In this document: positions 25,987-63,034 of the stretch, piece after piece
Position numbering within the stretch: the stretch's first letter is position 1
Layout of the letters: every line of letters begins with the position of its first letter
NCBI GenBank assembly: GCA_963768305.1
Contig: CAVYHE010000008.1
Span: 194,001-258,000 of the forward strand
Reading direction: 5' to 3'
Source of the DNA: an uncultured bacterium
GTDB lineage: Bacteria > Margulisbacteria > WOR-1 > CAVSGV01
DNA length: 64,000 bases
Notes under the pieces: generated by a model
The model's input: only the letters and a program-made list of their open reading frames with translations
Told to the model about the DNA's origin: nothing
Database searches by the model: none
Translations under genes and position numbers: made by a program

Positions 25987-26014
25987 TGAAATTTCGAGCG
26001 ATTTATCACGATAA
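25987..26014 (+). promoter_or_regulatory. SigD/FliA-type promoter (TGAAA-N17-CGATAAT) immediately upstream of rpoD
   Basis: GTGAAATTTCGAGCGATTTATCACGATAATA. Same motif and spacing as the nine other instances in this window. Confidence 0.5.
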
Positions 26015-26036
26015 TACATAAGTAAAGGAGATAAAA

Positions 26037-27091
26037 ATGAAAGAAGGAACGAATTTAAAGACGTTGAAGAATGCCGGCGAGAAGAAGGGATATCTTACTC
26101 CGGAAGAGATAATGTCCATTTATCCGGAGCCGGAGAAGAACATTGCCGAGATAGAGGAGCTTCTGACGCACGGCATAGAAATATCCGAGAACAAAGATAA
26201 GAAGATAGCGCCTTCTCCGGAAGAAACGAATCTTGACGTCACCGAAACAGAAGTAAAGAGCGCCGGCATAGACGATACCGTCAGGATGTACCTGAGGGAG
26301 ATAGGGAAATACAAGCTTCTTTCCCCCACGGACGAGATAGACTGCGCAAGGAAAGTTCGCGCTGGAAGCCTGAAGGACAAGCACAGGCTTACGAATTCGA
26401 ACCTGAGGCTGGTCGTTTCAATCGCGAAAAAATATACGGGCCGCGGGATGCTTTTCCTTGACCTGATACAGGAAGGCAACCTGGGATTGATAAGGGCTGT
26501 GGAAAAATTCGACCACAGGAAAGGGTATAAATTCAGTACTTACGCCACGTGGTGGGTAAGACAAGCAATAACGCGTTCTATAGCCGACCAGGCGCGAACC
26601 ATCAGGATCCCCGTTCACATGGTGGAAACCATGAACCGCCTGAGGAAGGTTTCGCGAACGCTCCTGCAGCAGCTGGGAAGGCGTCCCACCGAGGAAGAAA
26701 TAGCGAAAAGGTCCAGGATGTCGGTGGACAAAGTACGGGAGATAATAAAGATCTCGCAGATACCGCTTTCGCTTGAAATGCCTGTCGGTGACGAGGATTC
26801 TTCGCGCCTTGGCGATTTTGTGAAAGACACCGCCGTTCAGGCGCCGGATGAAGTGGTCCTTCATGGGCTATTAAGGGAAGACCTTGAGGAAGTAATGTCA
26901 TCGCTTTCTGACAGGGAAAAGACCGTGCTTAAGCTAAGGTTTGGCCTTGATGACGGCCAGCCGAGGACCTTGAAGAAGTTGGAAAAGTTTTCAATGTCAC
27001 CCGCGAGAGGATACGTCAGATAGAAGCGAAAGCCTTGAGGAAATTAAGGCATCCTACCCGCAGCAAAAAACTTAAGGAATATCTTAGATAA
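26037..27091 (+). CDS. rpoD: RNA polymerase sigma-70 factor (primary sigma, frameshifted near C-terminus)
   Basis: Region 2 ([27 protein letters not shown]...[17 protein letters not shown]) and region 3 are present. Region 4.2 ([28 protein letters not shown]) lies in the -1 frame. One missing G near 26975 breaks the gene. The tracked ORF ends early at 27023. Confidence 0.9.
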
Positions 27092-27097
27092 AGAGTT

Positions 27098-27940
27098 CTA
27101 TTTTCTCTTGATGAGCATTACCTGATACGTAAGGTATTTCCTGAAAACATCCTTCTTTAGCGGAACCAGATTATTCACGATGATCTGCCTTATCGGTTTG
27201 CCTTTTACCCTGAACTTGAGGAACAGGTTAATTAGCCAGTAAACCGGCGGAAGATGCACCTGCATGGTCGTCAAAATACAGCTAAGTACCGGCCTGATAT
27301 AATTAAGATAAACATTGCTGCCGTATTCAAGTGTCGGAAGGATGCCCTCGGTTATATCCTGTTTGCTTATGATCTTGAAGCCGGCCTTGTCAATTTCCTT
27401 GAGATAATCTTTCAGGCTGCCCGAAGGTAAATTTGGCACACCTTTCGCGGTTTCTTTCTTGAAATAATCAGATATCAGGAGGCGGCCAGCTGGCCGCAGA
27501 AGCGACGAGATCTTTTTCAGCCCTTCAGCGAACGGGATGTATTGCACGGATTCGCTCATTAATATGAGATCAAACCTCTGGTCGGTGTCGAATTTTTCCA
27601 GCGTGGTCAGCTTGAATCCGGCCTTGCCTTTCGTATTCTTCCGGAAAAGCTGGCCCTGATAAGGGTCCGGGCATATGCCTGTTACTTGGTAGCCGAGGCT
27701 TGATAATTTCGCCGCATTCCCCCCTACTCCGCAGCCAACGTCAAGTATGGTATTTACGCCTCTTGGTATCGTCTTTATCAGATTTTTAAGATATCTTTCC
27801 TGAGCGGCCTGGAAATTTTCAAGCGTCAGCTTATCGCCCTTTTTCCACAGGCCGAAATGGAGATAATTTGTTTTTGAAAGATCAAGATAAAGCTTGAGTA
27901 CCGGCTGAATTCTGACCTTTGTTTTTTCGATCTCCTGCAT
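27098..27940 (-). CDS. class I SAM-dependent methyltransferase
   Basis: Motif I ILDVGCGVGGNA with a Rossmann-fold methyltransferase core. Confidence 0.75.
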   Translation of the reverse strand: MQEIEKTKVRIQPVLKLYLDLSKTNYLHFGLWKKGDKLTLENFQAAQERYLKNLIKTIPRGVNTILDVGCGVGGNAAKLSSLGYQVTGICPDPYQGQLFRKNTKGKAGFKLTTLEKFDTDQRFDLILMSESVQYIPFAEGLKKISSLLRPAGRLLISDYFKKETAKGVPNLPSGSLKDYLKEIDKAGFKIISKQDITEGILPTLEYGSNVYLNYIRPVLSCILTTMQVHLPPVYWLINLFLKFRVKGKPIRQIIVNNLVPLKKDVFRKYLTYQVMLIKRK

Positions 27941-28038
27941 TATCGGGTAATTTTATCAAATTTGGCATGCATTCGCAATGAACCTGCCGCCGATACCTTG
28001 AAATATCTTGATTTTCTGATAAACTGATATTTAGAAAT

Positions 28039-28110
28039 GGCCCCATCGTCTAACGGTTAGGACATCAGCTTTTCAAGCTGACGATCGGGGTTCGATTCCC
28101 CGTGGGGCTA
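28039..28110 (+). tRNA. tRNA-Glu (anticodon TTC)
   Basis: Cloverleaf with anticodon loop TTTTCAA and T-loop TTCGATT. G1:U72 wobble at the acceptor end. Confidence 0.8.
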
Positions 28111-28209
28111 TTTAATTTAGGGGAGCTTCTTGGAATGAGGCTGAGAACTTCGATTTAATCGGAGGACCCGACAACTTGATCAGGATAATGCCTGCGAAAG
28201 GAGACAAAA

Positions 28210-29178
28210 GTGAAAAAAGAAAACCTGCCCGAACTTGGAAAGATACCTCCCGAATTTTTCGACCGCGTCATTTATCCACGGTTAGGCGCAAAAAATAAGA
28301 ACATCATGATCGGTCCGAGACATGGGGTCGATTACGGAGTATTAAAGGTCGGCTCAAAGTACATGGCGATGTCCACCGATCCATTCTTCATAGTCCCGCA
28401 ATTAGGCTTTATGAAAGCCGCGTGGTTCGCTTTTCATATTATATGCAGCGATGTCGCCGTATCGGGGCTGAAACCTGAATATCTGGCGATCGATCTTAAT
28501 CTGCCGCCCGAAATGACAGAAGCTCAGCTGGAAGAGATGTGGGAGACCGTGCACGAAGAATCAAAAAAGTACGACATTAGCATAATCACCGGTCATACCG
28601 CGCGATATACCGGATGTAATTATCCGATGGTCGGAGGAGCGACGGCGATAGCTATCGGCACAAAGAAAGAATTGCGCGGCCCTTTCAGGGTAAGGACCGG
28701 CGACCGGATAGTCATTACAAAAGGGCCGGCAATAGAAACGACCGGACTTTTAGCCGTCTTATTTCCCGACAGGTTCATCAGGGCAGGCGGAAAAGCTTTT
28801 CAGAAAGAAGCCGCTGGCGTTTTTGATCAGATGTCAGTGATGGATGATTGCGCGATAGCACGTGGATTGGAAGGGGTTCGAGTGATGCACGACGCGACCG
28901 AATGCGGCATATGGGGCGGGCTTTATGAAATGGCAAGAGCCGGAAATTACGGTCTGATGATAGAAGAAGAGCTGATCCCTATTCAGCCGGTGATCAAGAA
29001 AACAGCTGAACTGTTCGATTTTGACCCGTTCTGCGCAATAAGCGAGGGGACTTTACTGGCTATAGTTGATAAAAAAGAAACGGACAAGTTAATCTCAGCG
29101 TTCAGGAAAAATAGAATCTTAAGCGCGGTCGTCGGCGAAGTTGTCGAAAGTAAAAAAGGGATAAAGATCAAGAACTGA
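28210..29178 (+). CDS. AIR-synthase-related (PurM-like superfamily) protein of unknown role (HypE/ThiL-like)
   Basis: 322 aa with a PurM-like N-domain (GVDYGVLKVG...AMSTDPF) and C-domain. GTG start. Confidence 0.6.
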   Translation: MKKENLPELGKIPPEFFDRVIYPRLGAKNKNIMIGPRHGVDYGVLKVGSKYMAMSTDPFFIVPQLGFMKAAWFAFHIICSDVAVSGLKPEYLAIDLNLPPEMTEAQLEEMWETVHEESKKYDISIITGHTARYTGCNYPMVGGATAIAIGTKKELRGPFRVRTGDRIVITKGPAIETTGLLAVLFPDRFIRAGGKAFQKEAAGVFDQMSVMDDCAIARGLEGVRVMHDATECGIWGGLYEMARAGNYGLMIEEELIPIQPVIKKTAELFDFDPFCAISEGTLLAIVDKKETDKLISAFRKNRILSAVVGEVVESKKGIKIKN

Positions 29179-29254
29179 CAATGGAGAAAGAACGCTGGAA
29201 CATCCTAAAACGGACCCTTACTGGAAATTGGCGGCGGAATTCTCGAAGTAATAT

Positions 29255-30106: not shown

Positions 30107-30188
30107 ATCGGTGCGGATTCTAGCACACTATATTTATCAAGTAAACATAGTCAATGAGAAAACTCGGGACGAGAGAAAATGAGAAAAC

Positions 30189-30262
<74 letters not shown>

Positions 30263-30277
30263 GCCACATGAATTAAC

Positions 30278-30349
30278 TGGGCGCCGTTGGGATCGAACCA
30301 ACGACCTCCTCGGTGTAAGCGAGGCATTCTACCACTGAACTAGGCGCCC
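30278..30349 (-). tRNA. tRNA-Val (anticodon TAC)
   Basis: The reverse complement has acceptor GGGCGCC/GGCGCCC and anticodon loop CTTACAC. Confidence 0.85.
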
Positions 30350-30351
30350 AC

Positions 30352-30423
30352 TGGGCGCGAGAGGGATTGAACCTCTGACTTCTTGCGTGTGAAGCAAGCG
30401 TTCTACCACTGAACTACGCGCCC
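30352..30423 (-). tRNA. tRNA-Val (anticodon CAC)
   Basis: The reverse complement has acceptor GGGCGCG/CGCGCCC and anticodon loop TTCACAC. Only 2 nt separate it from the neighbouring tRNA-Val. Confidence 0.85.
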
Positions 30424-30506
30424 GCAGCTTTCTATTTTACTCCGCCGACGGCAGGACAGGCAAGGTCTTTTCAAGAAGAATGGATTCTGGTATAATCCGC
30501 ATCTGA

Positions 30507-30947: not shown

Positions 30948-30957
30948 GGGGGTTTTT

Positions 30958-31155: not shown

Positions 31156-31227
<72 letters not shown>

Positions 31228-34189: not shown

Positions 34190-34217
34190 TGAAATTTCCC
34201 GGCAAATGCGTCGATAA
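34190..34217 (+). promoter_or_regulatory. SigD/FliA-type promoter (TGAAA-N17-CGATAAT) of paralog-array copy 1
   Basis: ATGAAATTTCCCGGCAAATGCGTCGATAATAT. Confidence 0.55.
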
Positions 34218-34292
34218 TATGATTGAGGTGGCGCATGAGCGGTTCATCCCATATAGAATTATCCGGTATGACCGAAAGGAGAAGCTGATCCC

Positions 34293-35222
34293 ATGGAAGA
34301 TATAACGCCTGTAATTGGGGGAAAGGTGCCCAGGCGCTGGGCGCACGATCAGTTCCAAGAAAAAATAAGAGTGCGGCTGAGCGGTCCCCTGCATTCCGTC
34401 CTGTTACGCGGTATCCCTGTCATCATCTCATTCAGGGCGTACGCACAGGACGTTCCAAATGATATCCGCAATATCAATGAACTTTCAGAGGGCTGTACAG
34501 GAAACAGTGGCATAAGAACGAGGATATATTTCGGATCTTTGAAAAAGCGCTGACGCTGCTCTCCGCTGCAAAGATCGACCAGGAGCAACATTACAATTAT
34601 GAGTTGGACCTGGGAAAACTTGCGAACGCGTATCTTGCGGTGAATGCACTTTATAAAAAAGATGAGCCCGAGCTCCATAAAAAAGCCGTCGAATTCCTCA
34701 AGAAACCGATGAGGAGCGGGTCATTCCACTTGCTCAGGGAGACAGGCGCGGCAAGGAGGGTTTACGAATCGCCCGTTTTCATGCGTTTCAAGCGCCAATC
34801 CTGCACATTGTCCGAATTAAATGTAATGACCGGGGAATGGTTCGGGAAGCTGATCAGGGAGCTGCATGGTTCAGGCGTTCTGCTCAAGCCCGCGCTTAAA
34901 AAAGAGCTCATGGACCAGTTTACAAGCTATGAGCAGATCTTATATATGTTCTCGGAGCATCTTTTCTGCAATTACCTTGCGACTGACGGGCGATCGATGA
35001 GGCTCCTGAAAAGGTCAATGGAAGCCGCCGCCTCGGCGGCGCGGGACCCTTTGCCGAAAAAAAAGACATCATGCTGGACCTGTCCATTCTCATGCCGGAA
35101 AAATTGAAGAAGCTTAAGATAAATGAAACGAAGATCGAGGATATCATTGAATGCACGGATAACAGATCGGTGACGCAGTTCCTGGTCGAGGCCCGCGCGC
35201 TGGGAAATCGGACACTGCAATA
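34293..35222 (+). CDS. paralog-array copy 1, family Y protein of unknown function (two frame disruptions)
   Basis: Homologous over its full length to copy 4 (36851-37701). Carries the conserved NEDIFRIFEKA and GAARRVYESP motifs. There is a frame break near 34535 and another in an A8 run near 35065. The tracked ORFs 34293-34553 and 34604-35107 plus the tail to 35222 belong to one gene. Confidence 0.6.
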
Positions 35223-35245
35223 ATATAACTTTTTTCTGCTCTTGC

Positions 35246-35274
35246 TGAAATTTTCGCCCTATTTTAACGATAAT
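35246..35274 (+). promoter_or_regulatory. SigD/FliA-type promoter of paralog-array copy 2
   Basis: CTGAAATTTTCGCCCTATTTTAACGATAATATT followed by an AAGGGGG Shine-Dalgarno and the ATG at 35292. Confidence 0.55.
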
Positions 35275-35291
35275 ATTATAAAGGGGGAATT

Positions 35292-36232
35292 ATGAACAAA
35301 ATTGGGCATGCCTATTAAAGAGAAGTCTGGAAGGCTGCGTGAGAGACCAGAAGAATCCTGAGACTAATCAAAACATACATGGTCCGAAACCCATCGAGTG
35401 CTTCAAAGAGCTCATAGACCAATTTAACAATGTTAAGGCAAAATATCAATTCTGGTTGACATTTAATAAAGAGCAGGATCAGATGAAAATGGATTGGCCA
35501 AGATAATAATAAATCACCCTTACAAAAGAAGAAATTGCAGGAACTATTTAAAGGGCCATAAAGGTCAACAACCATATCGCGGTCAGAAAACTGGAGACTG
35601 TTAAATCCGCTTATTGCCTTAACCTTGAATATGACTACGAATTGGACCTCGAAAACACTCACAGAAAGATCATACCCTTATAATTCAAGAAAAAATGAGC
35701 TTGGATCAAACGCCGATAGTTTCCTGATGTCGTAAACACAGACGAAATAACAGGTATTTATGATGAGCCGCTGGGAACATTAAGGACAATGGGTGTCATG
35801 AAAAGAAAATATGATCCGCCGATATTTCCTTTCATCCCTAAATCTTGTTTCGTTGCGACCCTTACAGAAATTAAAAACATGTGCGGCGCGTGGTTTGGTT
35901 TCCATTTTGAGTTCGCCGAAAAATCAAATGTCCAATTGAATTTCCTCGGACAGGAAACATCCAACATTGAAGATCTTGCCATAAAAATTAAAAAGCATCA
36001 TCTTTCAGAGGACGGCAGGACGCTTCTGCTTTTTCAAAAAGCTGTTCGAGCGGCGATCTCGTATAACTCAGGAAGATTGACCAAGATAACCCTTGATCTT
36101 TGGCAGGTGACGCCGAAAAAGCTTGAGGAAAAAAACATCAGCGAAAAAGATGTTGAGGATTTGATTGACAATAAGGATAACGGCGCCATTATCAGATTTT
36201 TAAGGGAAAAGATCGGCGCGCTAATAATTTAA
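35292..36232 (+). pseudogene. paralog-array copy 2, family Y (N-terminal half disrupted by stops and frameshifts, C-terminal 147 aa intact)
   Basis: MNKIGHAY then a stop. Fragments RAIKVNNHIAV...EYDYELDLENTHRKII (35552-35691) and the 35789-36232 ORF align with copies 1 and 4. The antisense ORF 35315-35662 in the track is spurious. Confidence 0.55.
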
Positions 36233-36233
36233 C

Positions 36234-36767
36234 ATGCCTAAATACATGAATGTTAGAAGTGCACATGTCAAGTTGGTATACACCCGTCGACGCTATCAAA
36301 CTGTTGCGATGACCGGAATATTGCCCAAGTGCCCCGAAGATATGTCCCAAAAAATAAACCGCAAATTCGAACCGCATCTCTTTAACGCCCTGCAAAGCAA
36401 AACCTCGATATTTTTCGGGGAAACCTGCGTATCATCCTCCAGGGCCCTTGCAATGATCATACACGGATATGAAACAAGGTGCCCAAAAACCAGGATCGTT
36501 TTTTCAGATGACAAATTGAACATGCTGCTGAAAGCGATAAAGATCGCCGGCAAAGCCAACAGGAAAATTCTCGGTTCGCGCGATAAGGACTACTTATACC
36601 ACGTGCAGCTTGGAAAACTGCTTCCGACTCTGAACAAAATGGCGTCCTTTCAGCGAAAACTGAATGCTTTCAAGGGTCAGGAAAATGAAAAAGCCGCATT
36701 GACAATATTAGAGGAGATGGGCGCCATTGATTTGAAGTATTCGCCGCAAGCACCTGATTTCATATAA
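36234..36767 (+). CDS. paralog-array copy 3, family Y, C-terminally truncated variant
   Basis: 177 aa. A continuous reading frame across the region where copies 1 and 4 are broken (MIIHGYETRCPKTRIVFSDDKLNMLLKAIKIAG). Ends just after the Y-SP motif (AIDLKYSPQAP). Starts 1 nt after the copy 2 stop and has no promoter of its own. Confidence 0.55.
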   Translation: MPKYMNVRSAHVKLVYTRRRYQTVAMTGILPKCPEDMSQKINRKFEPHLFNALQSKTSIFFGETCVSSSRALAMIIHGYETRCPKTRIVFSDDKLNMLLKAIKIAGKANRKILGSRDKDYLYHVQLGKLLPTLNKMASFQRKLNAFKGQENEKAALTILEEMGAIDLKYSPQAPDFI

Positions 36768-36803
36768 TTCCCGCCTCCTCAACCCTTATTTTCCGCTTTC
36801 CAC

Positions 36804-36831
36804 TGAAATTCCCTCTTTATTTTGACGATAT
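36804..36831 (+). promoter_or_regulatory. SigD/FliA-type promoter of paralog-array copy 4
   Basis: CTGAAATTCCCTCTTTATTTTGACGATATATAT followed by a GAGGGA Shine-Dalgarno and the ATG at 36851. Confidence 0.55.
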
Positions 36832-36850
36832 ATATATAGAGGGAAAATAT

Positions 36851-37701
36851 ATGGTTATTGAACAAGCGGGCAGGGTTTTTGGCCTCGTGAGAATGAACTA
36901 CATGAGCGCCAGGATCAAAACCAGAATATCCGGAAGGTTCGAAGGTCTTCTGAAAGAAGCTTCAACCCTAAAAACGTCCGTTAGTTTTTACGGCATTATG
37001 ATACATAATGCCGGGGAATGTCCAGGGTAATCGCCGGCCGCAGATCGGACATCAATGAGGATACCCTGCATATTTTTGAGAAAGCCATTAAAACTAACAA
37101 CGCTTCATTCGCTGCGGATTATGTGTCTGAATTGGAGCTGGAAAACCTGCTTCCTCATCACCTTTCAACATATATACAGCAAAATAAATTAAATGACTTC
37201 CTGAAAAGCGAAGATCCGGCCTTATCGCTCGCCATTCTCAGAGAGTTCGGCGCGGCAAGAAGATTATATTATTCACCGATGAAATTATTCCGCGAGTCAG
37301 GATGGATCAATAATTCAAAAGATGTTTATGACCTTACGGAACACCATTTCGGCGGGCTCGTACAGAAAGCGATGGAATCGGGCATCGTAGTAAAGATCAA
37401 CTTTGGCACTGTCAAGGGAATCGAAGACCTGTCAAAGGCGATCTGGGTTAATCATCTTGCCGAGGACGGGCAAACTTTCCTAATGTTAAAAAAGGCGCTC
37501 GAAAACACTATTTCAGATGCGAAAAGGAATCAGCAAATGTTATATACTCTTGACCTTGGCTATTTGGTCCCAAGCCATGCTAAAGTAAATGGCGGCTTGA
37601 ATGACGCCATGATAGACAACATCATCGATGAAAAAGATCCCAGTATAGTGTATGGATTTCTTGTCCAATATCGGGTGCTCGATCTAAGATACCGCAGTTG
37701 A
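36851..37701 (+). CDS. paralog-array copy 4, family Y (one frame break near 37020)
   Basis: The 59-aa N-terminal ORF (MVIEQAGRVFGLVRMNYMSARIKTRISGRFEGLL...) and the 37018-37701 ORF (MSRVIAGRRSDINEDTLHIFEKAIK...GAARRLYYSP...) together align with copy 1 and copy 3. Confidence 0.6.
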
Positions 37702-40097: not shown

Positions 40098-40598
40098 TCA
40101 TCTAACGAACTTCAACGGTTCAAGTCCGGGAGTGATCTTTATCCAGGAATCCTTATCCCGAGGACCTGTCAACATAGCCGTACTAAGCAAATGATTGTGG
40201 AAAAGAGAAAATGTTTTTATAAAATATTTATATGGATCTGGTTCGTGAATTGAGGTTGATTTTGCTTTTAAGTATTCGAGATCGGATATCCAGACAACTC
40301 TTTGAAGTTTATTGCAAATATCAAGAATTTTCGCGCTTCGATCTTCTACGGTAAATTTCTTTACCTTCCTGATATTATCAAAAGGGACCCCGGCAGATAT
40401 AAATGCTTTGCGCACGAGGCTTGCGCGCTCCAAGAACTCGATCGAATGCTTTCTGGGCAGAACTCCCAAAGCTTTTGCGGTTTTCCGATTTACCCTGATG
40501 AATTGACAACCGCTATCACCGCCACTTATGTGAACAAAGGGAATATCTCTGCGGCAGTTGATCCTAAGAAAATCTTCCGGCATATCTTTCCTCCTCAA
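40098..40598 (-). CDS. family A paralog 1, hypothetical protein with conserved C-terminal W-I-K-I-T-P-G-L-E-P-L motif
   Basis: 166 aa with a TTG start and AAGGTG Shine-Dalgarno. Shares RRDIPFVHISGGDSGCQFIRVNRKTAKALGVLPRKHSIEFLE and the C-terminal DSWIKITPGLEPLKFV with the 41389-41958 protein. Confidence 0.55.
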   Translation of the reverse strand: MRRKDMPEDFLRINCRRDIPFVHISGGDSGCQFIRVNRKTAKALGVLPRKHSIEFLERASLVRKAFISAGVPFDNIRKVKKFTVEDRSAKILDICNKLQRVVWISDLEYLKAKSTSIHEPDPYKYFIKTFSLFHNHLLSTAMLTGPRDKDSWIKITPGLEPLKFVR

Positions 40599-40622: not shown

Positions 40623-40649
40623 TTATCGACAAATCATGCCGAAAATTCA
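40623..40649 (-). promoter_or_regulatory. SigD/FliA-type promoter variant (TTGAAT-N16-CGATAAA) of family A paralog 1
   Basis: Reverse complement TTGAATTTTCGGCATGATTTGTCGATAAAT. Confidence 0.45.
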
Positions 40650-40840
40650 ATTTTTCTAATCTTTTTCCCCGTGTCTTTTCAAAACATCAAGAATATGAGC
40701 TGTAAAAGCCCTTTCGCTTTCCCTTTCTGCATTAAAAGTTGAGATCGCAAATGAATCTTCATCATAGGGAGAGCTTATAACACGGGAATCCCCTTTCGTT
40801 TCACTTGCAAAGGTCCTTTCCTCTAACCGCATTGCAGAGC

Positions 40841-41179
40841 TTAAAAGTTTGAGGGCTTCTTGATGAGCACTGAGACCGGATTTAAGCAGAGTATCGATAT
40901 TGCCGTCAATCCTCTCTTTAACAAAAATGTGGCTAAGATCATTGGCCGCGATCTGGAATTTTTAAGTTTATTAACATTGCGTGGTGCTTCCAGGGACTTT
41001 TTGTAAGTAATGCGCAATTTTTCTATCCTTCCAGCGAGCATTGTTACATTAACCCCGCTATTTGAAATTTGAGGAGCAAGCCGGCTTCTAACCGCAAATA
41101 AAGGTTCCCTGACGATTTTCCTTAGCATATTTAGCCCTTTCGGGAGGTGAAGAGCCCCTATGTTCATTTTTATCATCAA
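40841..41179 (-). CDS. family A paralog 3 (diverged, shorter)
   Basis: 112 aa. The N-terminus MIKMNIGALHLPKGLNML...LAPQISNSG resembles the N-terminal region of the two longer paralogs. It lacks the C-terminal ITPGLEPL motif. Confidence 0.4.
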   Translation of the reverse strand: MMIKMNIGALHLPKGLNMLRKIVREPLFAVRSRLAPQISNSGVNVTMLAGRIEKLRITYKKSLEAPRNVNKLKNSRSRPMILATFLLKRGLTAISILCLNPVSVLIKKPSNF

Positions 41180-41216: not shown

Positions 41217-41244
41217 ATATCGTTAGCATTCTTTAAAAATTTCA
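41217..41244 (-). promoter_or_regulatory. SigD/FliA-type promoter of family A paralog 3
   Basis: Reverse complement GTGAAATTTTTAAAGAATGCTAACGATATATAAGGAG. Confidence 0.5.
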
Positions 41245-41388: not shown

Positions 41389-41958
41389 TCAGAGTTCTTT
41401 CTGATGTTTTATTAAATAATCCTTTACGGCATTTTTGCCTACAAAACTTAATGGTTCAAGGCCGGGAGTGATCTGGATCCAACAATCCCTGTCAGATGGT
41501 ATCGTTAATGCGGATCTGTTGAGTAAACGCATTTCAAATATGGAAAATGCTTCCTTAAGATATTGATGAAGATCTATGCTGAGATTATTGTGAATATCAA
41601 TACGTAAAAAGGCGAAGTCCCGTTCATTAAAGATGTTCGTGAATTTATCGCACACTTTGAAGACTTGGTTGCCGAGAGCTATTGAGGCGCGTAATTGCTC
41701 CACCCCGTTCATTTTGGAAAGATCTAATTGTGCATCATTGATAAAAGGATTTGATCCCGAGGAAGATATGAATGTTTTGATCAGGAGGGACTGGATCTCC
41801 AAATGCGCGAGCGGATAACTGCGCGGGGCGAGCCCGAGAACTTTTGCAGCCCCAGCATCAATTCTTATTTCTTTCCTGCCGGATAGTCCCCTGCTTATGC
41901 GGCCAAAGGGAATATTTACGTTCAAACTAGCCGCCCTGAGAACTTTTGATATACTCAT
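41389..41958 (-). CDS. family A paralog 2, hypothetical protein with C-terminal W-I-Q-I-T-P-G-L-E-P-L motif
   Basis: 189 aa. NVNIPFGRISRGLSGRKEIRIDAGAAKVLGLAPRSYPLAHLE and the C-terminal DCWIQITPGLEPLSFV are shared with paralog 1. Confidence 0.55.
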   Translation of the reverse strand: MSISKVLRAASLNVNIPFGRISRGLSGRKEIRIDAGAAKVLGLAPRSYPLAHLEIQSLLIKTFISSSGSNPFINDAQLDLSKMNGVEQLRASIALGNQVFKVCDKFTNIFNERDFAFLRIDIHNNLSIDLHQYLKEAFSIFEMRLLNRSALTIPSDRDCWIQITPGLEPLSFVGKNAVKDYLIKHQKEL

Positions 41959-42011: not shown

Positions 42012-42039
42012 TTATCGGCAATATTTGCGAAAAATTTCA
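42012..42039 (-). promoter_or_regulatory. SigD/FliA-type promoter of family A paralog 2 (perfect GCCGATAA -10)
   Basis: Reverse complement GTGAAATTTTTCGCAAATATTGCCGATAAAAT. Confidence 0.55.
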
Positions 42040-44348: not shown

Positions 44349-44405
44349 GTCCCTCCAAAAAACATGGTGATTATATCATGGGAGGGGGAGAATTTCAAAA
44401 ACCGG

Positions 44406-45272
44406 TCAAATGGTTCGCGGAGGCTTGTGGCGTAAGTCGATGATCATCGTATTATCGGGTTCGACAGGAATTATGTCATCCCCCTCTTCGTGAAGCACAT
44501 CATCTTTATGAAACACATGGTCATTATTGGTATCAGCGAATTTTACTGCCTTTTTTCTGCCTCCGTGAAAGCCTCGGTGAAGCTTGGTGATCTTTAGATG
44601 CGAGAGTTTCCCTGCGTAAGAGCTCATCATCCTTTCAACCTCCACTGAACCGGCGCACAAAAACCGTTGATTGGATAAAGCTCTGACAAAAACTTTTAAG
44701 ACCTTGTCCATTGTTTTTTGGGTAGCTTTTCCGCTGACCCGGACCACCAGAGTGAAATCCTTGAAGGGATCGATCCCCGGCACGGACCGCAAACCTTTAT
44801 TAAAATTCAAGTTGAAAAGGTTTGAGGGGTCTCCCTTGAACGGCTGCCATAATATCTTCACTTCAAATCCGTTAGGCACCGCATCCATGATCTCTCCAAT
44901 GTTAGTAAAAAAGTTGTGTTTGTTCAGGCTGCTTATCACTTTGCCGGGCAATTCAACCCGCTTTTCAATGCATTCTCTGAGAGGCCGTCTCGGCATTTGG
45001 AAACCTTTGCTTTGGAAACTGCCTGCGAGGCCGTTTTCCTCGATAACCTCAGCCAATCTGGGCAAAAGATCTTTCCTGACATGCTTCATGAAAGCTTCGG
45101 GATTTTGCTCGAGAGGGTTTTTTCCGCTTGGAACGATCTCATTGCTTACCGATCCCGAAGCTATGTACCCCTTTTTAGCGCTCTCAAGATGCTTCTGAAA
45201 GGGGCTGAACCTTACAGCTTCGGCATGAGACGCGTGTTTCCCGAAATTCCCGATTTTTCTTGTTGATATCAA
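44406..45272 (-). CDS. hypothetical protein (288 aa)
   Basis: TTG start with an AAGGTGG Shine-Dalgarno. No recognisable domain. Confidence 0.5.
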   Translation of the reverse strand: MISTRKIGNFGKHASHAEAVRFSPFQKHLESAKKGYIASGSVSNEIVPSGKNPLEQNPEAFMKHVRKDLLPRLAEVIEENGLAGSFQSKGFQMPRRPLRECIEKRVELPGKVISSLNKHNFFTNIGEIMDAVPNGFEVKILWQPFKGDPSNLFNLNFNKGLRSVPGIDPFKDFTLVVRVSGKATQKTMDKVLKVFVRALSNQRFLCAGSVEVERMMSSYAGKLSHLKITKLHRGFHGGRKKAVKFADTNNDHVFHKDDVLHEEGDDIIPVEPDNTMIIDLRHKPPRTI

Positions 45273-45290: not shown

Positions 45291-45318
45291 ATATCGGCTT
45301 TTTGGCGTGAAAATTTCA
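45291..45318 (-). promoter_or_regulatory. SigD/FliA-type promoter (perfect GCCGATAT -10)
   Basis: Reverse complement CTGAAATTTTCACGCCAAAAAGCCGATATAAT, located 19 nt upstream of the TTG start of the 288-aa hypothetical. Confidence 0.55.
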
Positions 45319-48341: not shown

Positions 48342-49159
48342 TTAGTCTTTGAGGGTTGCCCTGTAAAGCAGGTTTTTGGGGACTTTCAGCCGTTTCGCCA
48401 CTATTTTTACCGCGTTGCTCTTCGGAATGCCAGCTTCAATAAGATCGTCCACCAGCATCTCGGGGTCTATGCCTGCCTTCTCCGGCGCTTTCTCGCCTTC
48501 GATCACAAGAACAAATTCTCCTTTGGGTTTGACCTTTGAGAATTTATCGATCATCTGAGAAGCCGTGCCCCTCGCGATCTCCTCGAATTTTTTCGTCAAT
48601 TCCCTCGCAACACACATTTTCCTGTCCCTGAAACCGCTTTTAATATCTTCAAGGGTTTCCAGGAGGCGATGAGGTGCTTCATATAATATGATCGTCCTCT
48701 CTTCACGTGACAGCTTCTCGAAAATTCTTTTCTTGCGGAAGGCTTCACGGGAGGAAAACCCTCAAAAGCAAAGCTTTCGGTCTTAAGCCCTGAAACGGAA
48801 AGCGCGGCGATCAAAGCGGACGCACCAGGGATCACTTCGATCTTAATCCCTTCGCCTGCCGCTGCTTTAACCAGCTCCTGTCCGGGATCGGATATCCCTG
48901 GCATTCCCGCGTCAGAAACAAGAGCGACTTTTTTACCCTCTTTTAATTTATTGATGATGAAAGCCGTCTTTGTCTTCATGTTGAATTTATGGTATGAGGT
49001 CGTCGGCGTTTTTATATGATATTTATCAAGAAGTATTTTCGTATGGCGCGTGTCTTCGCAGGCGATAATATCCGCTGATCTGAGCGTTTCAACCGCACGG
49101 AAAGTGATGTCCTGAATATTGCCTATGGGGGTACCTACTATGTAGAGATATCCGGCCAT
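48342..49159 (-). CDS. rsmI: 16S rRNA (cytidine1402-2'-O)-methyltransferase RsmI (frameshifted)
   Basis: N-terminal tetrapyrrole-methylase fold (YIVGTPIGNIQDITFRAVETLRSADIIACEDTRHT). The conserved C-terminus (MCVARELTKKFEE...KGEFVLVIEG) is in another frame. The break is in an A-run near 48730 (ARKEFS versus expected RKKRIFEKLSREERTIILYEAPHRL). Confidence 0.8.
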
Positions 49160-50974: not shown

Positions 50975-51601
50975 TTAATGGCTGAAATACTTTTTGACCG
51001 AACTGAACGCCTTGTTCCCCCGGCCGCTGAATATTTTAACAATATCCGCGCGATGTGTAAACAATCCTACCAGAAAATATAAAAAGCCGAATAAAACATA
51101 AGTGTTCGACATCCTAAAGCAATACATCAAGATGGGAAGGATCAGCATGCAGATAAGCGAGCTAATAATGAAATAATCCGTAACGATCGTAAAAAATATC
51201 CACCCCAATATTATGATCAGCGTTATGTAAGCGTTTATCCCGAACATCGCGCCTGTTGTAGTGGCCACGCCTTTGCCGCCGGAAAACCCCAGAAATACTG
51301 GAAAATCGTGGCCCAGGATAGCGGCAAGCCCCGCAAACCCCATCGAAATGTCAGTTCCTAATATTTTTTTTGCCAGAAGCACCGGTATCAGGCCTTTAAA
51401 AAGATCAAACGCGTACACAAGCGCTGCCAGGACAGGGCCTATAACGATAAGGACATTCGTCGCGCCCATATTGCCCGTGCCTTTTTGCCTTATGTCGATC
51501 CCGGAATTTATTTTCCCCGCAAGATAAGCGGATGGTATTGAGCCGAAAAGGTATGAAAAGAAAGTCAAGGCAGCCAATATGATCACATGATTATTGATCA
51601 A
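50975..51601 (-). CDS. plsY: glycerol-3-phosphate acyltransferase PlsY
   Basis: GTGNMGATN and GKGVAT motifs in a polytopic membrane protein. Confidence 0.88.
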   Translation of the reverse strand: MINNHVIILAALTFFSYLFGSIPSAYLAGKINSGIDIRQKGTGNMGATNVLIVIGPVLAALVYAFDLFKGLIPVLLAKKILGTDISMGFAGLAAILGHDFPVFLGFSGGKGVATTTGAMFGINAYITLIIILGWIFFTIVTDYFIISSLICMLILPILMYCFRMSNTYVLFGFLYFLVGLFTHRADIVKIFSGRGNKAFSSVKKYFSH

Positions 51602-52810
51602 GATTAAATTCTTTATGAAGCAGCTCCATCGCTTTCTTGGCCTGGTCCGCCTTTACGACGCAGGAGATCTTTATTTCCGAAGTGCTGATCATTTCCAGGT
51701 TTATTCCGTTCCTTCCAAGGACATCGAACATTGTTCCCGCGACCCCGGGCTTGGATATCATCCCAACGCCGACTATGGAAACTTTCGCGACCTTGTCATC
51801 GGAAATGACGCCTTCGGCGCCAAGCTCTGCTGCGACCACTTTTGTTACTTCGACCGCTTTTTTCATATCGGGCTTTGAGACCGTGAACGCCATGTCCGCC
51901 ATGGATCCGGATGAATGTATGCTCTGAATGATCATGTCGATATTTATTTTTTCGTTGCCCAGCGCTCTTGAATATCTTTGCGGCAATGCCGGGTTTGTCA
52001 GGTATCTTCAGTATGCCCGACTTTCGCTATATTCGCGTCGATAGCCACTCCCGATACCACATCTTTTTTTTCCATTTCAGATACCTCCTTGATATAAGTT
52101 CCTTCAACGTCAGACAAGCTGGAGCGAAGATGGATAACAAGCCCGTAATTCTTCGCGCATTCCACAGCCCTCGGATGCAGAACTTGAGCGCCCAGGCTCG
52201 CCAGCTCCAGCATTTCGTCATAAGATATGTATTTCAATTTCCTCGCATTCGTAACGATTCTCGGATCGGCGGTGTAAATACCGTCAACATCGGTGTATAT
52301 CTCGCAGACGTCCGCCTTTAAAGCCGATGCGATGACCACTGCTGATGTGTCAGACCCGCCCCTGCCAATTGTCGTAATGTCGCCGTGGCTGTCTATCCCT
52401 TGAAAACCGGTGACTACGACAATTTTCCCCTGGCTCAATTCGTGCTGTATTCTGTCCAGTTTAATATGAGTGATGCGGGCTTTGGACGGAATGTCCTCTG
52501 TGTGAACGCCTGCCTGCCATCCAGTTAATGATACCGCTTTAAAGCCAAGCGCATGTATCGCCATAGTAAGAAGTGCGGCAGAAACCTGCTCGCCCGTGGA
52601 AAGCAGCATGTCATATTCCCTTGGATCCGGGCTATCGGTTATCTGATTAAGAAGGCCGATAAGCTCGTCAGTTGTATCCCCCATGGCGGAAACGACCACG
52701 ACTACATTATTACCTGCGGCTTTCGCTGCAGTCACTCTGGCAGCGACACTTTTTATGCGCTCAACAGAGCCGACCGATGACCCGCCGTATTTTTGGACGA
52801 TCAATGCCAT
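51591..52810 (-). CDS. lysC: aspartate kinase (two frameshifts between kinase and ACT domains)
   Basis: N-terminal kinase domain (IVQKYGGSSVGS) in the 51998-52810 ORF and tandem ACT domains in the 51591-51986 ORF. The linker AKVGILKIPDKPGIAAKIF is in a third frame. Extra bases near 51990 (GGG run) and near 51965 (AAGA) split the gene. Confidence 0.85.
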
Positions 52811-56101: not shown

Positions 56102-56150
56102 GAGAGTCATTAACTAAAGAACGTAGAATACGAGCGAGGTGAAAAACAGA

Positions 56151-56420
56151 ATGACAAAGAGTTTATTTGTAGGCAATCTTCCGTGGTCGGTGACCGAGGA
56201 CGAGCTTAAGAGCAAGTTCGAGGAGCACGTAAAAGTTACCGCGGTAAGGCTGATAACCGACAAGATGACCGGCAGAGCCAAAGGATTCGGCTTTGTGGAA
56301 GTCGAGGATTCAGAGATGGACAAAGCCATCTCCTCAATGAACGGCCAGAAGATCGGCGATCGCGAGATCGTTGTGAACGAAGCCAGGCCGAGAGCTGAGA
56401 GGTCGGACAGAAGGTTCTAA
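56151..56420 (+). CDS. RRM-type RNA-binding protein (second paralog)
   Basis: RNP2 LFVGNL and RNP1 KGFGFVEV. ATG at 56151 with a GAGGTGA Shine-Dalgarno. The track starts 12 nt earlier at a GTG. Confidence 0.85.
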   Translation: MTKSLFVGNLPWSVTEDELKSKFEEHVKVTAVRLITDKMTGRAKGFGFVEVEDSEMDKAISSMNGQKIGDREIVVNEARPRAERSDRRF

Positions 56421-56496: not shown

Positions 56497-56970
56497 CTAA
56501 TCGTTCTTATTCGATTGAACAAGATAATGAAGGAAATTATTTACCGATCTTTTAACTGAGAAATACCCGTATAAAGTTAACGCGGAGATGGCAGGCCCAA
56601 TAGCCATGAAGATCTCATTCTGAAACAAATATGCCGCGCCGCCGATGAACAGTCCGGTCCCTATTAAGGTCTTATCTGCAGTATCGAGTTTGTTAGCTTT
56701 CACTTTATATTCACTTAGTTCATATTTAGGTTCGTTAAATAACTGGTATTTCTGCGCCGCATTCAGCGCCAGCTCCATTCTGGTTGTTTTTGTAGAAGAC
56801 CTTGTAGTGCTTTCAAAATGAAGTAAAAACTTTGCCATAAGGCTTGTCTTCACTGTTCTCCCCTCTTCACCTTGCTGAACTTTTAAACCCTTTGTTCGCA
56901 ATAAAAGCAACATATGCGCTGTAAGTTTCGGTGTCCCGACTTTTTTTATTCCAAATAATCTCATAAACAT
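56497..56970 (-). CDS. hypothetical protein with C-terminal transmembrane helix (157 aa)
   Basis: ATG start. A predicted transmembrane helix (LIGTGLFIGGAAYLFQNEIFMAIGPAISALTLYGYF) near the C-terminus. No known domain. Confidence 0.5.
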   Translation of the reverse strand: MFMRLFGIKKVGTPKLTAHMLLLLRTKGLKVQQGEEGRTVKTSLMAKFLLHFESTTRSSTKTTRMELALNAAQKYQLFNEPKYELSEYKVKANKLDTADKTLIGTGLFIGGAAYLFQNEIFMAIGPAISALTLYGYFSVKRSVNNFLHYLVQSNKND

Positions 56971-56997: not shown

Positions 56998-57025
56998 TTA
57001 TCGTCATATTTCCACGAAAATTTCA
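56998..57025 (-). promoter_or_regulatory. SigD/FliA-type promoter of the 157-aa hypothetical
   Basis: Reverse complement ATGAAATTTTCGTGGAAATATGACGATAATAAT. Confidence 0.55.
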
Positions 57026-59446: not shown

Positions 59447-59541
59447 TGAATATTGGGGAGTAGACCCGAAGGGTCGTTGAGGGGCTTGCCCCTCAAGTAA
59501 CGAGAGTTAGAGCAAAGTAACAACAAAGGAGGAGTAATAAT

Positions 59542-60567
59542 ATGGCAGACGAAAAAAAGAAAGCATTGGAAATGGCGATAACGCAGATAGAAAAGAACTG
59601 CGGCAAGGGTTCCATAATGAGAATGGACAAGGCGTCAAAGATGGACGTGGAGGTGATCCCGTCCGGGGTGTTCGCTCTTGATGCCGCTCTGGGAGTGGGC
59701 GGATTCCCGAAAGGAAGGATAATCGAGATATACGGGCCCGAAGGCGGCGGAAAAACCACCGTTTCGCTCCAGGCAATAGCCGAAGCGCAGAAACGGGGAG
59801 GCATTGCGGCGTTCATCGATGCCGAGCATGCACTTTCTCCGGTATATGCAAAAAAACTCGGCGTTGATATTAACAATCTTCTCATATCTCAACCTGACTA
59901 CGGTGAGCAGGCACTGGAGATAGCTGAAACTTTGATCAGGTCTGGAGCCGTCGATATCATAGTTGTCGATTCGGTCGCCGCCTTAGTTCCGAAAGCGGAG
60001 ATCGAGGGAGAGATGGGAGATTTCCAGGTAGGCCTTCAGGCAAGGTTGATGTCAAAGGCGCTAAGAAAATTGACCGCGGTCATCAGCAAGGGGAAGACCG
60101 TAATGATCTTCATCAACCAGCTGAGGGAAAAGATCGGGATAATGTTCGGCAATCCCGAAGTCACGCCGGGCGGCAGAGCGCTGAAATTCTATTCTTCGGT
60201 CCGGCTGGAAGTAAGGGCAAGTGAAAAGATAAAGGATGCGGACAGGATAATAGGGACAAAGGTGAAAGTGAAGGTAGTGAAGAATAAGGTGGCACCTCCT
60301 TTCAGGGAAGCTTTCTTCACACTGATACACGGGGAAGGCATTTCAAAGGGCGCGGACATCCTTGACAGTTCCATTGCCGCAGGGATAGCGGAAAAGAGCG
60401 GCGCATGGTTCACTTATAAAGGGGAGAAGATAGGACAGGGATGGGAGAACAGCGTGAAAATACTGGAAGAGAACAGGGAGCTTGCGAAAAAAATGGAAAG
60501 CGACCTTAGGAAATACGTTTTGAACCCGGGAAAACCAGCGGTAGTGGCGGAAACGAAGAAGAAATAA
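59542..60567 (+). CDS. recA: recombinase RecA
   Basis: Walker [11 protein letters not shown]1/L2 loops and full-length RecA homology. Confidence 0.92.
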
Positions 60568-60603
60568 CGGACACTGGCGCGTAATAGAAGGAGGATGAGT
60601 TAA

Positions 60604-62151
60604 ATGAATTTAGCGAGCTTTATCTACAGCACGGTGCTCGCTGTCATCGTATTCGCGATGTTCGTCGCGTATATCATGATCAGAAGGAGCATGGCGGAGC
60701 AGAAGATCCGCGTGGCACAGGAAACGGCGAAGCGGATCCTGGAGGACGCAAAGCGCGACGCCGAGACAAAAAGACGGGAAGCGATACTGGAGGCAAAAGA
60801 TGAGTCACTGAAATTAAGGCAGGAATTCGATAAGGAGACGAAGGAAAGAAAAGCGGAGCTTTTCAACCTGGAAAAAAGGCTTCTACAGCGCGAAGAGAGC
60901 ATGGACGCGCGTGAGAAAAATGTCGAAGAGGCCAAGAAAAAATTGGTCTCCGCGGAAGCCGACATCGCAAAAATGCGGGTGCTTCTGGAAGAATTGAGAG
61001 TTCAGCATGTTAAAGAGCTGGAAAAAGTTTCCGGCTTGACCAGGGAGGAAGGTATCAAGACCCTTTTAAAGAACCTGGAAAAGGACATGGACAGGGAAGC
61101 AGCTCTTCTGATAAAGGCGAAGGAAGAACAGATGAAAAAGGACGCGGACAAGATGGCGAAAGAGATATTATCCACCGCCATCCAGCGCTGCGCCGTGGAC
61201 CATGTCGTGGAATCCACAATTACCGTGGTCGAGCTTCCGAACGATGAAATGAAAGGGCGCATTATCGGGCGTGAAGGAAGGAATATCCGCGCGTTCGAAA
61301 CATTGACAGGTGTTGATCTGATAGTGGATGACACGCCGGGAGCAGTTATCATATCGGGTTTTGATCCGGTAAGAAGGGAAACCGCCAGATTGACTTTGAC
61401 AAAACTTATCGCCGACGGAAGGATCCATCCGGCGAGAGTCGAAGAAATGTATAATAAGTCGAAGGAAGAACTGAAAGCTGCCATGTGGGAGCATGGTGAA
61501 AAGGCCACATTTGAAGCGGATGTCCACGGCCTGCCTCCGGTCTTGATCCAGATGCTCGGGAGATTGAGGTACAGGACCAGCTACGGACAGAATGTTCTTC
61601 AGCATTCAGTAGAGGTCGCGAAGATCTCCGGAATGATCGCGGCAGAACTTGGCGTTAATGTGAAGCTGGCAAAAAGGGCCGGACTTCTCCATGACATAGG
61701 AAAGGCCATTGATCAGGAATCCGAAGGGACACATACAAAACTTGGCGTTACGTTCGCCCAGAAAGCGGGCGAATCGCCGGAAGTCCTTCACGCCATAGCC
61801 GCACATCACGGCGACGAACCGGCGCGCACCGCCGAAGCGGTCATAGTGGCCGTGGCTGACGCCATATCGGCTTCAAGGCCGGGCGCGAGGCGCGACACTC
61901 TGGAAGCTTACATAAAGAGGCTGGAAAACCTGGAGAAAGTCGCCTGCTCGTTTGAGGGAGTTGAAAAATGCTTCGCCATTCAGGCCGGAAGAGAAGTAAG
62001 GATAATGGTCCAGCCGGACAAGCTTGACGACCTTATGTCGACAAAACTCGCGCACGATGTCGCAAGGAAGATCGAAGCTGAGCTGGATTACCCGGGCGAA
62101 GTAAAAGTGACGGTCATAAGGGAGACCAGGGCGACGGATACCGCAAAATGA
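60604..62151 (+). CDS. rny: ribonuclease Y
   Basis: N-terminal transmembrane helix, coiled-coil, KH domain ([15 protein letters not shown]) and HD domain (LLHDIGKA...HHG). Confidence 0.9.
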
Positions 62152-62957
62152 AGATACTATTCATAGGGGACATAATCGGGCGGCCGGGGCGCACGATCAC
62201 CGCGAGCCTACTGCCGGAGCTGAAAAAGGAGTTCTCGCCTGACGTCGTGATAGCGAATGGGGAGAATTCTGCAGCGGGAGTAGGCATCACTAAAAAGGTT
62301 TATGACGAGCTGATGGACATGGGCATTGACGTCATAACCATGGGGAACCACATCTGGGACAGGAAAGAATTCCTGCCGGACATCGCGTCCTGCCCCAACC
62401 TTGTGAGGCCCGCGAATTATCCCGAAGGCGTCCCTGGAAAAGGCTATGATGTTTATTCATCGAAAGGGATAAAGTACGGGGTAGTTAATCTGGTCGGGCG
62501 CGTTTTCATGTCCTGCATAAACGATCCGTTCCAGACGGCGAATGATATTGTTCAAAAAATTAAGCATGAAACCCATATCATATTCATTGATTTTCACGGA
62601 GAGGCGACATCGGAGAAGAACGCGCTCGCGTGGTATCTGGACGGAAAAGTTTCCGCCGTGATAGGGACGCACACCCATATCCAGACCGCTGATGAAAGGA
62701 TACTCCCGAAAGGAACGGCGTTCATCACGGACGCCGGAATGGTGGGCGCTTATGATTCGATCATAGGCGTGCAAAAGGAGCAGATAATCAAGAGATTTCT
62801 ACTTTCCATGCCCGAGCGTTTCGAGCCGGAAGACAAAGGCCCCGGCATCTTCAACGGGCTTGTCATTGATATTGACGAAAGCGGAAAGGCCAGAGAGATA
62901 AAGAGGATTTACAAGGTCATACCGGACATGGGGAACATAGCGAAGCAAGAGAGTTAG
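62148..62957 (+). CDS. ymdB: YmdB-family metallophosphoesterase (2',3'-cyclic nucleotide phosphodiesterase)
   Basis: [15 protein letters not shown]...ANGENSAAG...GNHIWD metallophosphatase motifs. Conserved synteny downstream of rny. Confidence 0.88.
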
Positions 62958-63006
62958 GTTTTCGAAAAACATCTCCCATCCCTTTCAAAATATTTTCACC
63001 AAAAAG

Positions 63007-63034
63007 TGAAATTCCCGCACAAAACTGCCGATAA
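63007..63034 (+). promoter_or_regulatory. SigD/FliA-type promoter (TGAAA-N17-GCCGATAA) of the LRR protein gene
   Basis: GTGAAATTCCCGCACAAAACTGCCGATAATGG followed by an AGGAGG Shine-Dalgarno and the ATG at 63053. Confidence 0.55.

Follow-up and report, generated by a model that had tools for sequence, protein, structure and literature searches.

A candidate promoter class with sigma-28-like architecture upstream of rpoD and lineage-restricted genes in Saganbacteria-related Margulisiibacteriota

INTRODUCTION

Sigma factors of the sigma-28 (FliA/WhiG) family read flagellar late promoters (FliA/SigD) and, in the case of Streptomyces WhiG and chlamydial sigma-28, promoters of non-motility genes, the regulons of these two factors being small and bound to a developmental switch. 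Alternative sigma factors can also drive the gene of the primary one: in Escherichia coli a sigma-32-dependent heat-shock promoter of rpoD lies inside the 3′ end of dnaG, and in Bacillus subtilis the sigA operon promoter is read by SigH. Here we analyse ten copies of a bipartite motif of the general form TGAAA-N17-CGATAA in a 64,000-nucleotide (nt) stretch of DNA from an uncultured bacterium (assembly GCA_963768305.1, contig CAVYHE010000008.1, positions 194,001 to 258,000), which we call the window. One of these copies stands at the junction of dnaG and rpoD, and the others precede genes of no assigned function. A preliminary description of the window had listed the ten copies as SigD/FliA-type promoters of a common regulon.

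Published sigma-28 sites provide the closest sequences for comparison. The fliC promoter of Pseudomonas aeruginosa reads TCTAAAG from −36 to −30 and GCCGATAA from −15 to −8, with GC as an extended −10 element (PMC12784957); WhiG sites, in which the central CGA is conserved, read T(A/C)AA-N16-GCCGATAA (PMC12871210); and chlamydial late genes are reported to depend on sigma-28 (bioRxiv 10.1101/322701). As regards the phylum of the window, a promoter predictor based on a sigma-70 catalogue gave partial shortlists in 68.4% of Margulisbacteria (n = 38), and incomplete shortlists were most frequent in Aquificota, Eremiobacterota and Margulisbacteria (bioRxiv 10.64898/2026.09.23.753901). These failures of the predictor hint that promoters of the phylum are atypical more generally.

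RESULTS

All ten sites of the preliminary description were recovered at the coordinates and on the strands given there (Table 1). The exact pattern TGAAA-N17-CGATAA occurs six times in the window against 0.10 occurrences expected, and none of 100 shuffled sequences reached six; three other sites have CGATAT instead of CGATAA in the −10 box, and one further site, at 40623, reads TTGAAT at −35. When the ten are aligned, conservation extends over two blocks, aAAAAgTGAAATTTyc and (g/a)(c/a)CGATAa/t. All ten sites contain CGATA, and three of them (63007, 42012 and 45291) have the full GCCGATAA or GCCGATAT at the −10 position, both in agreement with what had been described. A position weight matrix built from the sites gives them scores of 35–50 bits, and no other position of the 64 kb exceeds 12 bits; this matrix is self-trained on the ten sites, and independent support comes from the related loci considered below (designated by L-numbers). 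Invariant spacing had been claimed as well, which is true of nine of the ten sites (GAAAT-N14), the tenth (40623) being off by one base of an A-run. The difference between this site and its ortholog at L206 10589, which reads TGAAAT, is a single base inside the same A-run, and the TTGAAT of the window may be a homopolymer error of an error-prone assembly or a real weakening mutation. Downstream of every site there is a Shine–Dalgarno sequence and a start codon, again as described, the start lying 18–53 nt past the −10 box. An Rfam scan of the window matched solely tRNAs and a thiamine pyrophosphate (TPP) riboswitch, and therefore no RNA family coincides with the motif sites.

The sites were compared with the promoters of neighbouring housekeeping genes. 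Near-consensus sigma-70 promoters had been noted upstream of ppsA, ppdK and dgt and score 10–11 of 12 matches; another one, TTGAAA-17-TGnTATAAT with 11 of 12, precedes secD. Because of these near-consensus promoters at secD, ppsA, ppdK and dgt, the motif sites are regarded as an alternative promoter class, and the earlier view that they are not housekeeping promoters is retained. Set against the sigma-70 consensus (TTGACA-N17-TATAAT, in which −12 and −7 are T and −11 is A), the best reading of the sites is xTGAAA-N18-GATAAx, with 9 of 12 matches; in this reading −12 is an invariant G after an invariant C, and −7 varies between A, T and C. Regions 2.4 and 4.2 of the RpoD protein of the window are canonical by comparison with the E. 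coli sequence, and this RpoD should therefore prefer TATAAT and TTGACA.

The window is placed by its SecD protein in Candidatus Margulisiibacteriota, near Saganbacteria/WOR-1: identity is 85–90% to two Microflora Danica metagenome-assembled genomes (MAGs), 62–70% to Saganbacteria/WOR-1 MAGs and 52–61% to Marinamargulisbacteria-type MAGs. In the protein collection the products of the window are found on a contig of 280,951 bp. In a scan at a threshold of at least 14 bits, secD loci of the Margulis/Saganbacteria group (660 kb in all) had 6.7 matches per 100 kb; unrelated loci brought in by the same scan (595 kb) had 0.17 per 100 kb, and Marinamargulis-type loci had none. In the related loci CGATA is found in 23–25 of 25 sites, and G and C are weakly preferred at the two preceding positions. 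Outside the window 93% of 73 motif matches have the start of an open reading frame (ORF) within 300 nt, and in 40% such a start lies 16–30 nt downstream (median 27 nt), as against 10.5% of random positions. Moreover, the motif is kept at orthologous positions in syntenic Illumina contigs (L205–L209). Over six groups of orthologous promoters, mismatches amount to 4.2% in the −35 box and to 1.4% in the −10 box; the spacer reaches 23%, and the flanking sequence 40% on the upstream and 30% on the downstream side. The motif sites are real, under selection and positioned as promoters are, and they differ from the sigma-70-like promoters of the genes around them.

Scanning of metagenome contigs with the exact pattern gave at least 120 loci, many of them chance matches; about 25–45 of the loci listed show the extended features, several of these with two to five sites. 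As judged from these sequences, the promoter class is common to the Saganbacteria/WOR-1-related branch of Margulisiibacteriota, a clade-wide distribution that the preliminary description had missed, and by extrapolation a 1.7-Mb genome would carry roughly 50–120 sites. On two unrelated metagenome contigs (L142 12845–12940 and L193 4920–5015) two full copies of the motif stand in tandem, 66 bp apart, before homologous genes.

A single conserved target was found, namely rpoD, a role that the preliminary description had likewise missed. The motif is present at the dnaG–rpoD junction in five of five lineages (the window, L119, L210, L211 and L212), which span 74–92% RpoD identity and 44–57% GC, and in two of the five it overlaps the end of dnaG. 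Annotated targets elsewhere in the clade comprise RelA/SpoT, PfkB, ROK, LacI and Rrf2 regulators, GlgA and an arginase–TPR fusion, together with protein kinases and SLH outer-layer, TPR, fibronectin type III and Ig-like proteins, and most targets match nothing.

In L002 and L014, tgt, secD, secF, ftsK and an ABC transporter are contiguous, whereas in the window a 288-aa gene, the genes of family A and the Y array are inserted between them. The content of such islands, which the preliminary description had not recognised as variable, differs even among contigs whose A1 orthologues are 81–85% identical, and the window targets had no tblastn match in syntenic loci of relatives at 84–90% SecD identity. 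Among 5.8 billion proteins A1 has just four homologues, all at least 81% identical, and for the Y family only 30 related clusters were found in 1.84 billion representatives. The downstream genes had been called hypothetical, and even as intact orthologues they have no family match (Pfam, PADLOC). For the Y array the earlier label ‘unannotatable’ holds in so far as intact orthologues (282–326 aa) match no family, but the ORFs of the window are also broken by frameshifts. An anti-phage defence role was considered and rejected, as ten intact orthologues had no PADLOC match. Members of the Y family (Y4 and proteins P0127–P0152) are about 280–330 aa long, and their C-terminal domain of about 200 aa is predicted to consist of two similar alpha/beta halves; the AlphaFold2 model of this domain (Y4, 37018–37701) has a predicted local distance difference test (pLDDT) score of 94.1 and a predicted template modelling score of 0.88, and no convincing structural relative was seen in PDB or BFVD. 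The model of A1 is poor and unusable (pLDDT 41).

The N-termini of motif-driven proteins of the window and loci L003–L202 have a biased composition. Within the first 30 residues, 33 motif-driven proteins have fewer acidic residues than 177 control proteins from the same loci, for which start-site calls are rough (1.58 versus 2.69, p 0.002), more Ser/Thr (4.45 versus 3.38, p 0.007) and a higher net charge (+2.7 versus +1.0, p 0.001). This bias is gone at residues 60–89, and three quarters of the motif-driven proteins lack a predicted membrane segment. Such a composition would be consistent with an N-terminal targeting signal. Several motif-driven enzymes (RelA/SpoT, PfkB, ribulose-phosphate epimerase, PCMT and arginase) carry long N-terminal extensions. 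An Inc-like two-helix hairpin was also considered as a feature of the targets and dropped, since it is not enriched (3 of 44 versus 11 of 388).

The cognate sigma factor was sought with phmmer and a sigma profile in every ORF of 212 loci and in the window translated in six frames. This search recovered rpoD (window and L119), FliA genes in classes of the phylum that lack the motif, and one gene of an extracytoplasmic function (ECF) factor. The preliminary description had suggested looking for a FliA/SigD/WhiG homologue; none was found in the motif-bearing lineage, and such genes belong to other classes of the phylum, where a FliA/WhiG-family gene matches TIGR02479 at 215.7 bits. These FliA genes are of a secDF-linked type (L030, L083) and of a full flagellar-cluster type (L079 from GCA_001784485, L080 and L082). 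At L079 a loose TAAA-N18-CGATAT lies upstream of motA. In the Marinamargulis-like genomes of L030 (10001–13848) and L083 (2246–5977), the FliA/WhiG gene lies directly 3′ of secD–secF and outside flagellar clusters; in L030 the next gene is DUF6115-like, as it is at flagellar fliA loci. The slot 3′ of secF, which holds the FliA/WhiG gene in L030 and L083, is occupied by motif-driven family A genes in the window. The ECF gene codes for a sigma factor of 163 aa, is paired with a gene for a 92-aa membrane protein of anti-sigma type (L200, 4949–5705) and stands on a motif-bearing contig. In the literature on Saganbacteria, no statement on motility or sigma factors was found.

DISCUSSION

In the reading that we prefer, with a probability of about 0.55, the sites are promoters of a sigma-28-family alternative factor that is used throughout the clade for rpoD and a variable set of other genes. 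The ten sites of the window would then be bipartite promoters read by RNA polymerase with an alternative sigma factor, most likely of the sigma-28 (FliA/WhiG) family, that prefers TGAAAT over TAAAG at −35. The −10 box would be (gc)CGATAA and the −35 box TGAAATTT, 14 nt apart, and transcription would start a few bases past the −10 box, so that leaders would be short and contain a Shine–Dalgarno sequence. The regulon would not be flagellar: it would have one conserved core target, rpoD, reached through an internal promoter at the dnaG–rpoD junction, and its remaining targets would be mostly lineage-restricted genes in variable islands between conserved housekeeping genes.

The sigma-28 architecture claimed in the preliminary description stands, since GAAAT-N14-(GC)CGATAA has the same spacing and the same CGATAA core as the published consensus sequences. 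The −10 box of the sites agrees with GCCGATAA and its invariant central CGA, and the distance of 14 nt is that from TAAAG to GCCGATAA (−30 to −15) in the P. aeruginosa fliC promoter. Flagellar late promoters of FliA/SigD, TAAAG(TTT)-N11/14-GCCGATAA, thus resemble the motif in having two boxes, in the distance between them and in the −10 core CGATAA; the −35 box is A-rich and then T-rich in both, with GAAATTT here and TAAAGTTT there. The −35 box of the motif departs from TAAA(G) or T(A/C)AA at its first base: GAAAT aligns with TAAAG and keeps AAA, but G takes the place of T in all sites, which is the one systematic difference. The GC of the extended −10 element is only weakly preferred here. 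The regulons also differ, since no flagellar, chemotaxis or motility targets and no fliA were found in this lineage, and its regulon is projected to be larger and to consist mostly of lineage-restricted genes.

Several observations weigh against a sigma-28-family factor. The first −35 base is G, whereas every published sigma-28 consensus has T, and the extended −10 GC occurs in just about three of the ten sites. A sigma-28-family gene is absent from all motif-bearing loci and from the six-frame window, in a genome sample that is small and biased, and the proposed assignment is based on the similarity of the motif. The FliA loci of the phylum (L030 and L078–L084, from other classes) are without any instance of the motif; as a weaker point, the contigs of the 120 best FliA matches include none of the long RpoD contigs of the motif clade (0.28–1.35 Mb). 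The link to flagella or cyclic di-GMP that had been thought possible was not borne out by the roughly 80 downstream proteins sampled across the clade, nor was one to pili: no flagellar, chemotaxis or pilus Pfam family was seen in 13 proteins of the window, 18 of secD loci and 40 of metagenome loci, the targets of a flagellar class III regulon (flagellin, flgM, motAB or chemotaxis genes) are missing among them, and tblastn with 15 flagellar-cluster proteins had no match in any motif-bearing locus.

An alternative sigma factor that does not belong to the sigma-28 family, either an ECF factor (group 4) or another one of group 3 with a preference for TGAAAT-N16-CGAT, could also read these promoters, which we consider possible but not probable. 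B. subtilis SigW sites, TGAAAC-N16-CGTA, resemble the motif in the initial TGAA and in a −10 box that opens with CG at equal spacing; moreover, the motif clade has an ECF gene (L200 4949–5440, Sigma70_r2 and r4_2), followed by that of a small anti-sigma-type membrane protein, and no sigma-28 gene was found in its loci. However, ECF promoters are marked by AAC at −35 and CGT at −10, and the motif has neither, its boxes being GAAAT and CGATAA with AAAT and CGA at these places. The conserved −10 block of 6–8 nt (CGATAA with a weak GC before it) is longer than that of SigW sites and like that of sigma-28. Upstream of the L200 gene there is an RpoE-like GGAACTT-N16-GTCTAA and not the motif, and no sigma/anti-sigma pair is preceded by the motif, although ECF genes are usually autoregulated. 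A regulon of about 50–120 promoters would also be large for an ECF factor. It is further conceivable, though we regard it as unlikely, that RpoD itself reads the sites as a subclass xTGAAA-N18-GATAAT, with the extra bases forming the site of a lineage-specific activator or repressor that overlaps −35. A generic sigma-70 scan does flag several of the sites (9 of 12 matches with 18-nt spacers), good sigma-70-like promoters of the window (secD and a tRNA) also have TTGAAA at −35, the motif before rpoD in all lineages could serve autoregulation, and the sigma-70 catalogue is often partial in Margulisbacteria (68.4%). What speaks against RpoD is that every site has G at the sigma-70 −12 position, with C before it in each case, that −7, where T is expected, varies, that the boxes stand at a fixed distance of 18 nt, which is suboptimal, and that the protein has canonical regions 2.4 and 4.2 while promoters of TATAAT/TTGACA type exist next door; nor are the boxes palindromic or repeated, as most transcription-factor sites are.

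The position of the rpoD site, at or within the 3′ end of dnaG, recalls the E. coli heat-shock promoter, and the sigma-32 −35 box CTTGAAA shares TGAAA with the motif. By this analogy the sites would be promoters of an RpoH (sigma-32)-like factor, which is very unlikely: the sigma-32 −10 box CCCCATNT differs from the invariant CGATA, the motif is 1–2 nt longer in its spacing, no chaperone or protease family was seen among the roughly 80 downstream proteins scanned across the clade, and RpoH is known essentially from Proteobacteria. We give hardly any credence to the idea that the motif, rather than being a promoter, is an element of mobile gene cassettes with a structural or recombination role, copied together with the inserted genes. 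Most sites do head genes in variable insertions, several of them in paralogous families, but these paralogues are only about 30–37% identical and have kept the boxes intact while the spacers differ. The motif is also found before the syntenic rpoD of five lineages and before enzymes such as RelA/SpoT and GlgA, its fixed distance to Shine–Dalgarno sequence and ATG suits a promoter, and a non-exhaustive look by eye showed neither a second copy in the 3′ flank nor an inverted partner.

If a sigma-28-family factor is at work, its sites would resemble those of Streptomyces WhiG and of chlamydial sigma-28 at late genes, in that a sigma-28-type consensus stands at non-motility genes. They would differ in their targets, which here are rpoD and many variable genes without assigned function. 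This would add a further repurposed flagellar sigma factor to WhiG and chlamydial sigma-28, with a regulon that is unusually large and variable. The arrangement proposed at rpoD is like that of E. coli rpoD and B. subtilis sigA, with an alternative sigma factor driving the primary sigma gene and an internal promoter between dnaG and rpoD; unlike the sigma-32 and SigH cases, the motif matches neither consensus, and the sampled targets show no evident stress regulon. That all lineages examined have an alternative promoter before their primary sigma gene constitutes a testable piece of wiring. As the promoter class is sharp and conserved in the clade, its regulon can be read directly from genomes, which flags co-regulated genes of no known function and supplies lineage-specific proteins with which structural and functional studies can begin.

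A broader proposal, which we put forward as speculation and hold to be rather improbable, is that a flagella-free sigma-28-like factor would serve a clade-wide programme for effector-like proteins of fast turnover, with feedback on rpoD. The domains that suggest it are leucine-rich repeats (LRR), TPR, fibronectin type III, SLH, Ig-like domains and a eukaryote-type kinase, with one ankyrin-like repeat seen by eye; new folds such as that of the Y family belong to the targets too, and the N-termini, low in acidic residues and high in Ser and Thr, resemble those of substrates of type III-like export. If this proposal were true, it would suggest a partner- or host-associated lifestyle of the small-genome relatives of Saganbacteria.

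ANNOTATION OF THE WINDOW

The ten sites and the genes downstream of them are collected in Table 1, together with the secD promoter as an example of the contrasting class.

Table 1. Candidate promoter sites of the window, the genes that follow them and one sigma-70-type promoter
Feature	Coordinates	Strand	Remarks
Promoter site 1	25987..26014	+	TGAAATTT-N14-CGATAA; begins one base past the dnaG stop; rpoD ATG 22 nt downstream
rpoD, primary sigma factor	26037..27088	+	Pfam Sigma70 regions 1.1-4; frameshift near codon 300, true C-terminus in another frame
Promoter site 2	34190..34217	+	Heads Y1; orthologous site L206 17130 conserved
Y1, Y family	34235..35223	+	Frameshifted in the window; intact orthologues of 310 aa in L206/L207
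Promoter site 3	35246..35273	+	Heads Y2 and the 177-aa gene next to it; conserved at the orthologous sites L206 16071 and L205 18210
Y2 and 177-aa gene	35292..36767	+	Y2 frameshifted, C-terminal part 35789-36232
177-aa gene	36234-36767	+	Starts two bases after Y2; without a promoter site of its own; 282-aa and 177-aa genes paired in L206
Promoter site 4	36804..36831	+	−10 CGATAT; heads Y4; orthologous sites L206 14522 and L205 16638 conserved
Y4, Y family	36851..37701	+	One frameshift near 37018-37030; segment 37018-37701 modelled
Promoter site 5	40623..40650	-	Variant −35 TTGAAT; heads A3; orthologue L206 10589 reads TGAAAT
A3, family A paralogue	40098..40583	-	37% identical to A1; no Pfam family
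Promoter site 6	41217..41244	-	−10 CGATAT; heads the 112-aa ORF A2
A2, 112-aa ORF	40841..41179	-	Similarity to A1 or A3 not detected; least certain of the gene calls
Promoter site 7	42012..42039	-	Full GCCGATAA; lies just downstream of secF and heads A1; L205 9914 and L206 9920 conserved
A1, 189-aa family A gene	41389..41958	-	No Pfam family
Promoter site 8	45291..45318	-	GCCGATAT; heads the 288-aa gene; orthologous site L205 6564 conserved
288-aa gene, no assigned function	44406..45272	-	Inserted between SpoIIM-like gene/tgt and secD; slot empty in L002 and L206
Promoter site 9	56998..57025	-	Heads the 157-aa gene
157-aa gene, no assigned function	56497..56970	-	Hydrophobic C-terminal stretch by eye
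Promoter site 10	63007..63034	+	Full GCCGATAA; heads the LRR gene
163-aa protein, weak LRR matches	63053..63544	+	LRR_4 E = 3.7e-5, below the Pfam cut-off
Sigma-70-type promoter, contrast class	44370..44398	-	TTGAAA-17-TGnTATAAT, 11/12, directly upstream of secD

Frameshifts split several genes of the window, namely rpoD (26037–27088), ppdK (20248–22954), rsmI (48342–49159), the aspartokinase gene (51591–52810) and the Y genes (34235–37701). In relatives the orthologues of rpoD are intact, with 351–353 aa and 92% identity to the window RpoD, and ppdK (896–915 aa), rsmI (276 aa) and aspartokinase (405–414 aa) are whole as well. As essential genes are split in the window but whole in relatives, the frameshifts are taken for sequencing errors, and the window comes from an error-prone assembly, probably one of long reads.

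Some other features were seen in the window. The stretch 16001–18000 has a low GC content (0.33 versus about 0.47 elsewhere) and may be acquired DNA; ORFs of 397 and 235 aa (15718–17629) lie here, just upstream of ppsA, and no motif site is present. The TPP riboswitch (28109–28219, plus strand; Rfam RF00059 at 55.2 bits, slightly over the gathering cut-off) directly follows tRNA-Glu and stands upstream of a gene of the AIR-synthase family (28210–29178), which is probably thiamine-related. Two small ORFs on the plus strand (11681–11941 and 56139–56420) have N-termini that look RRM/RNP-1-like by eye.

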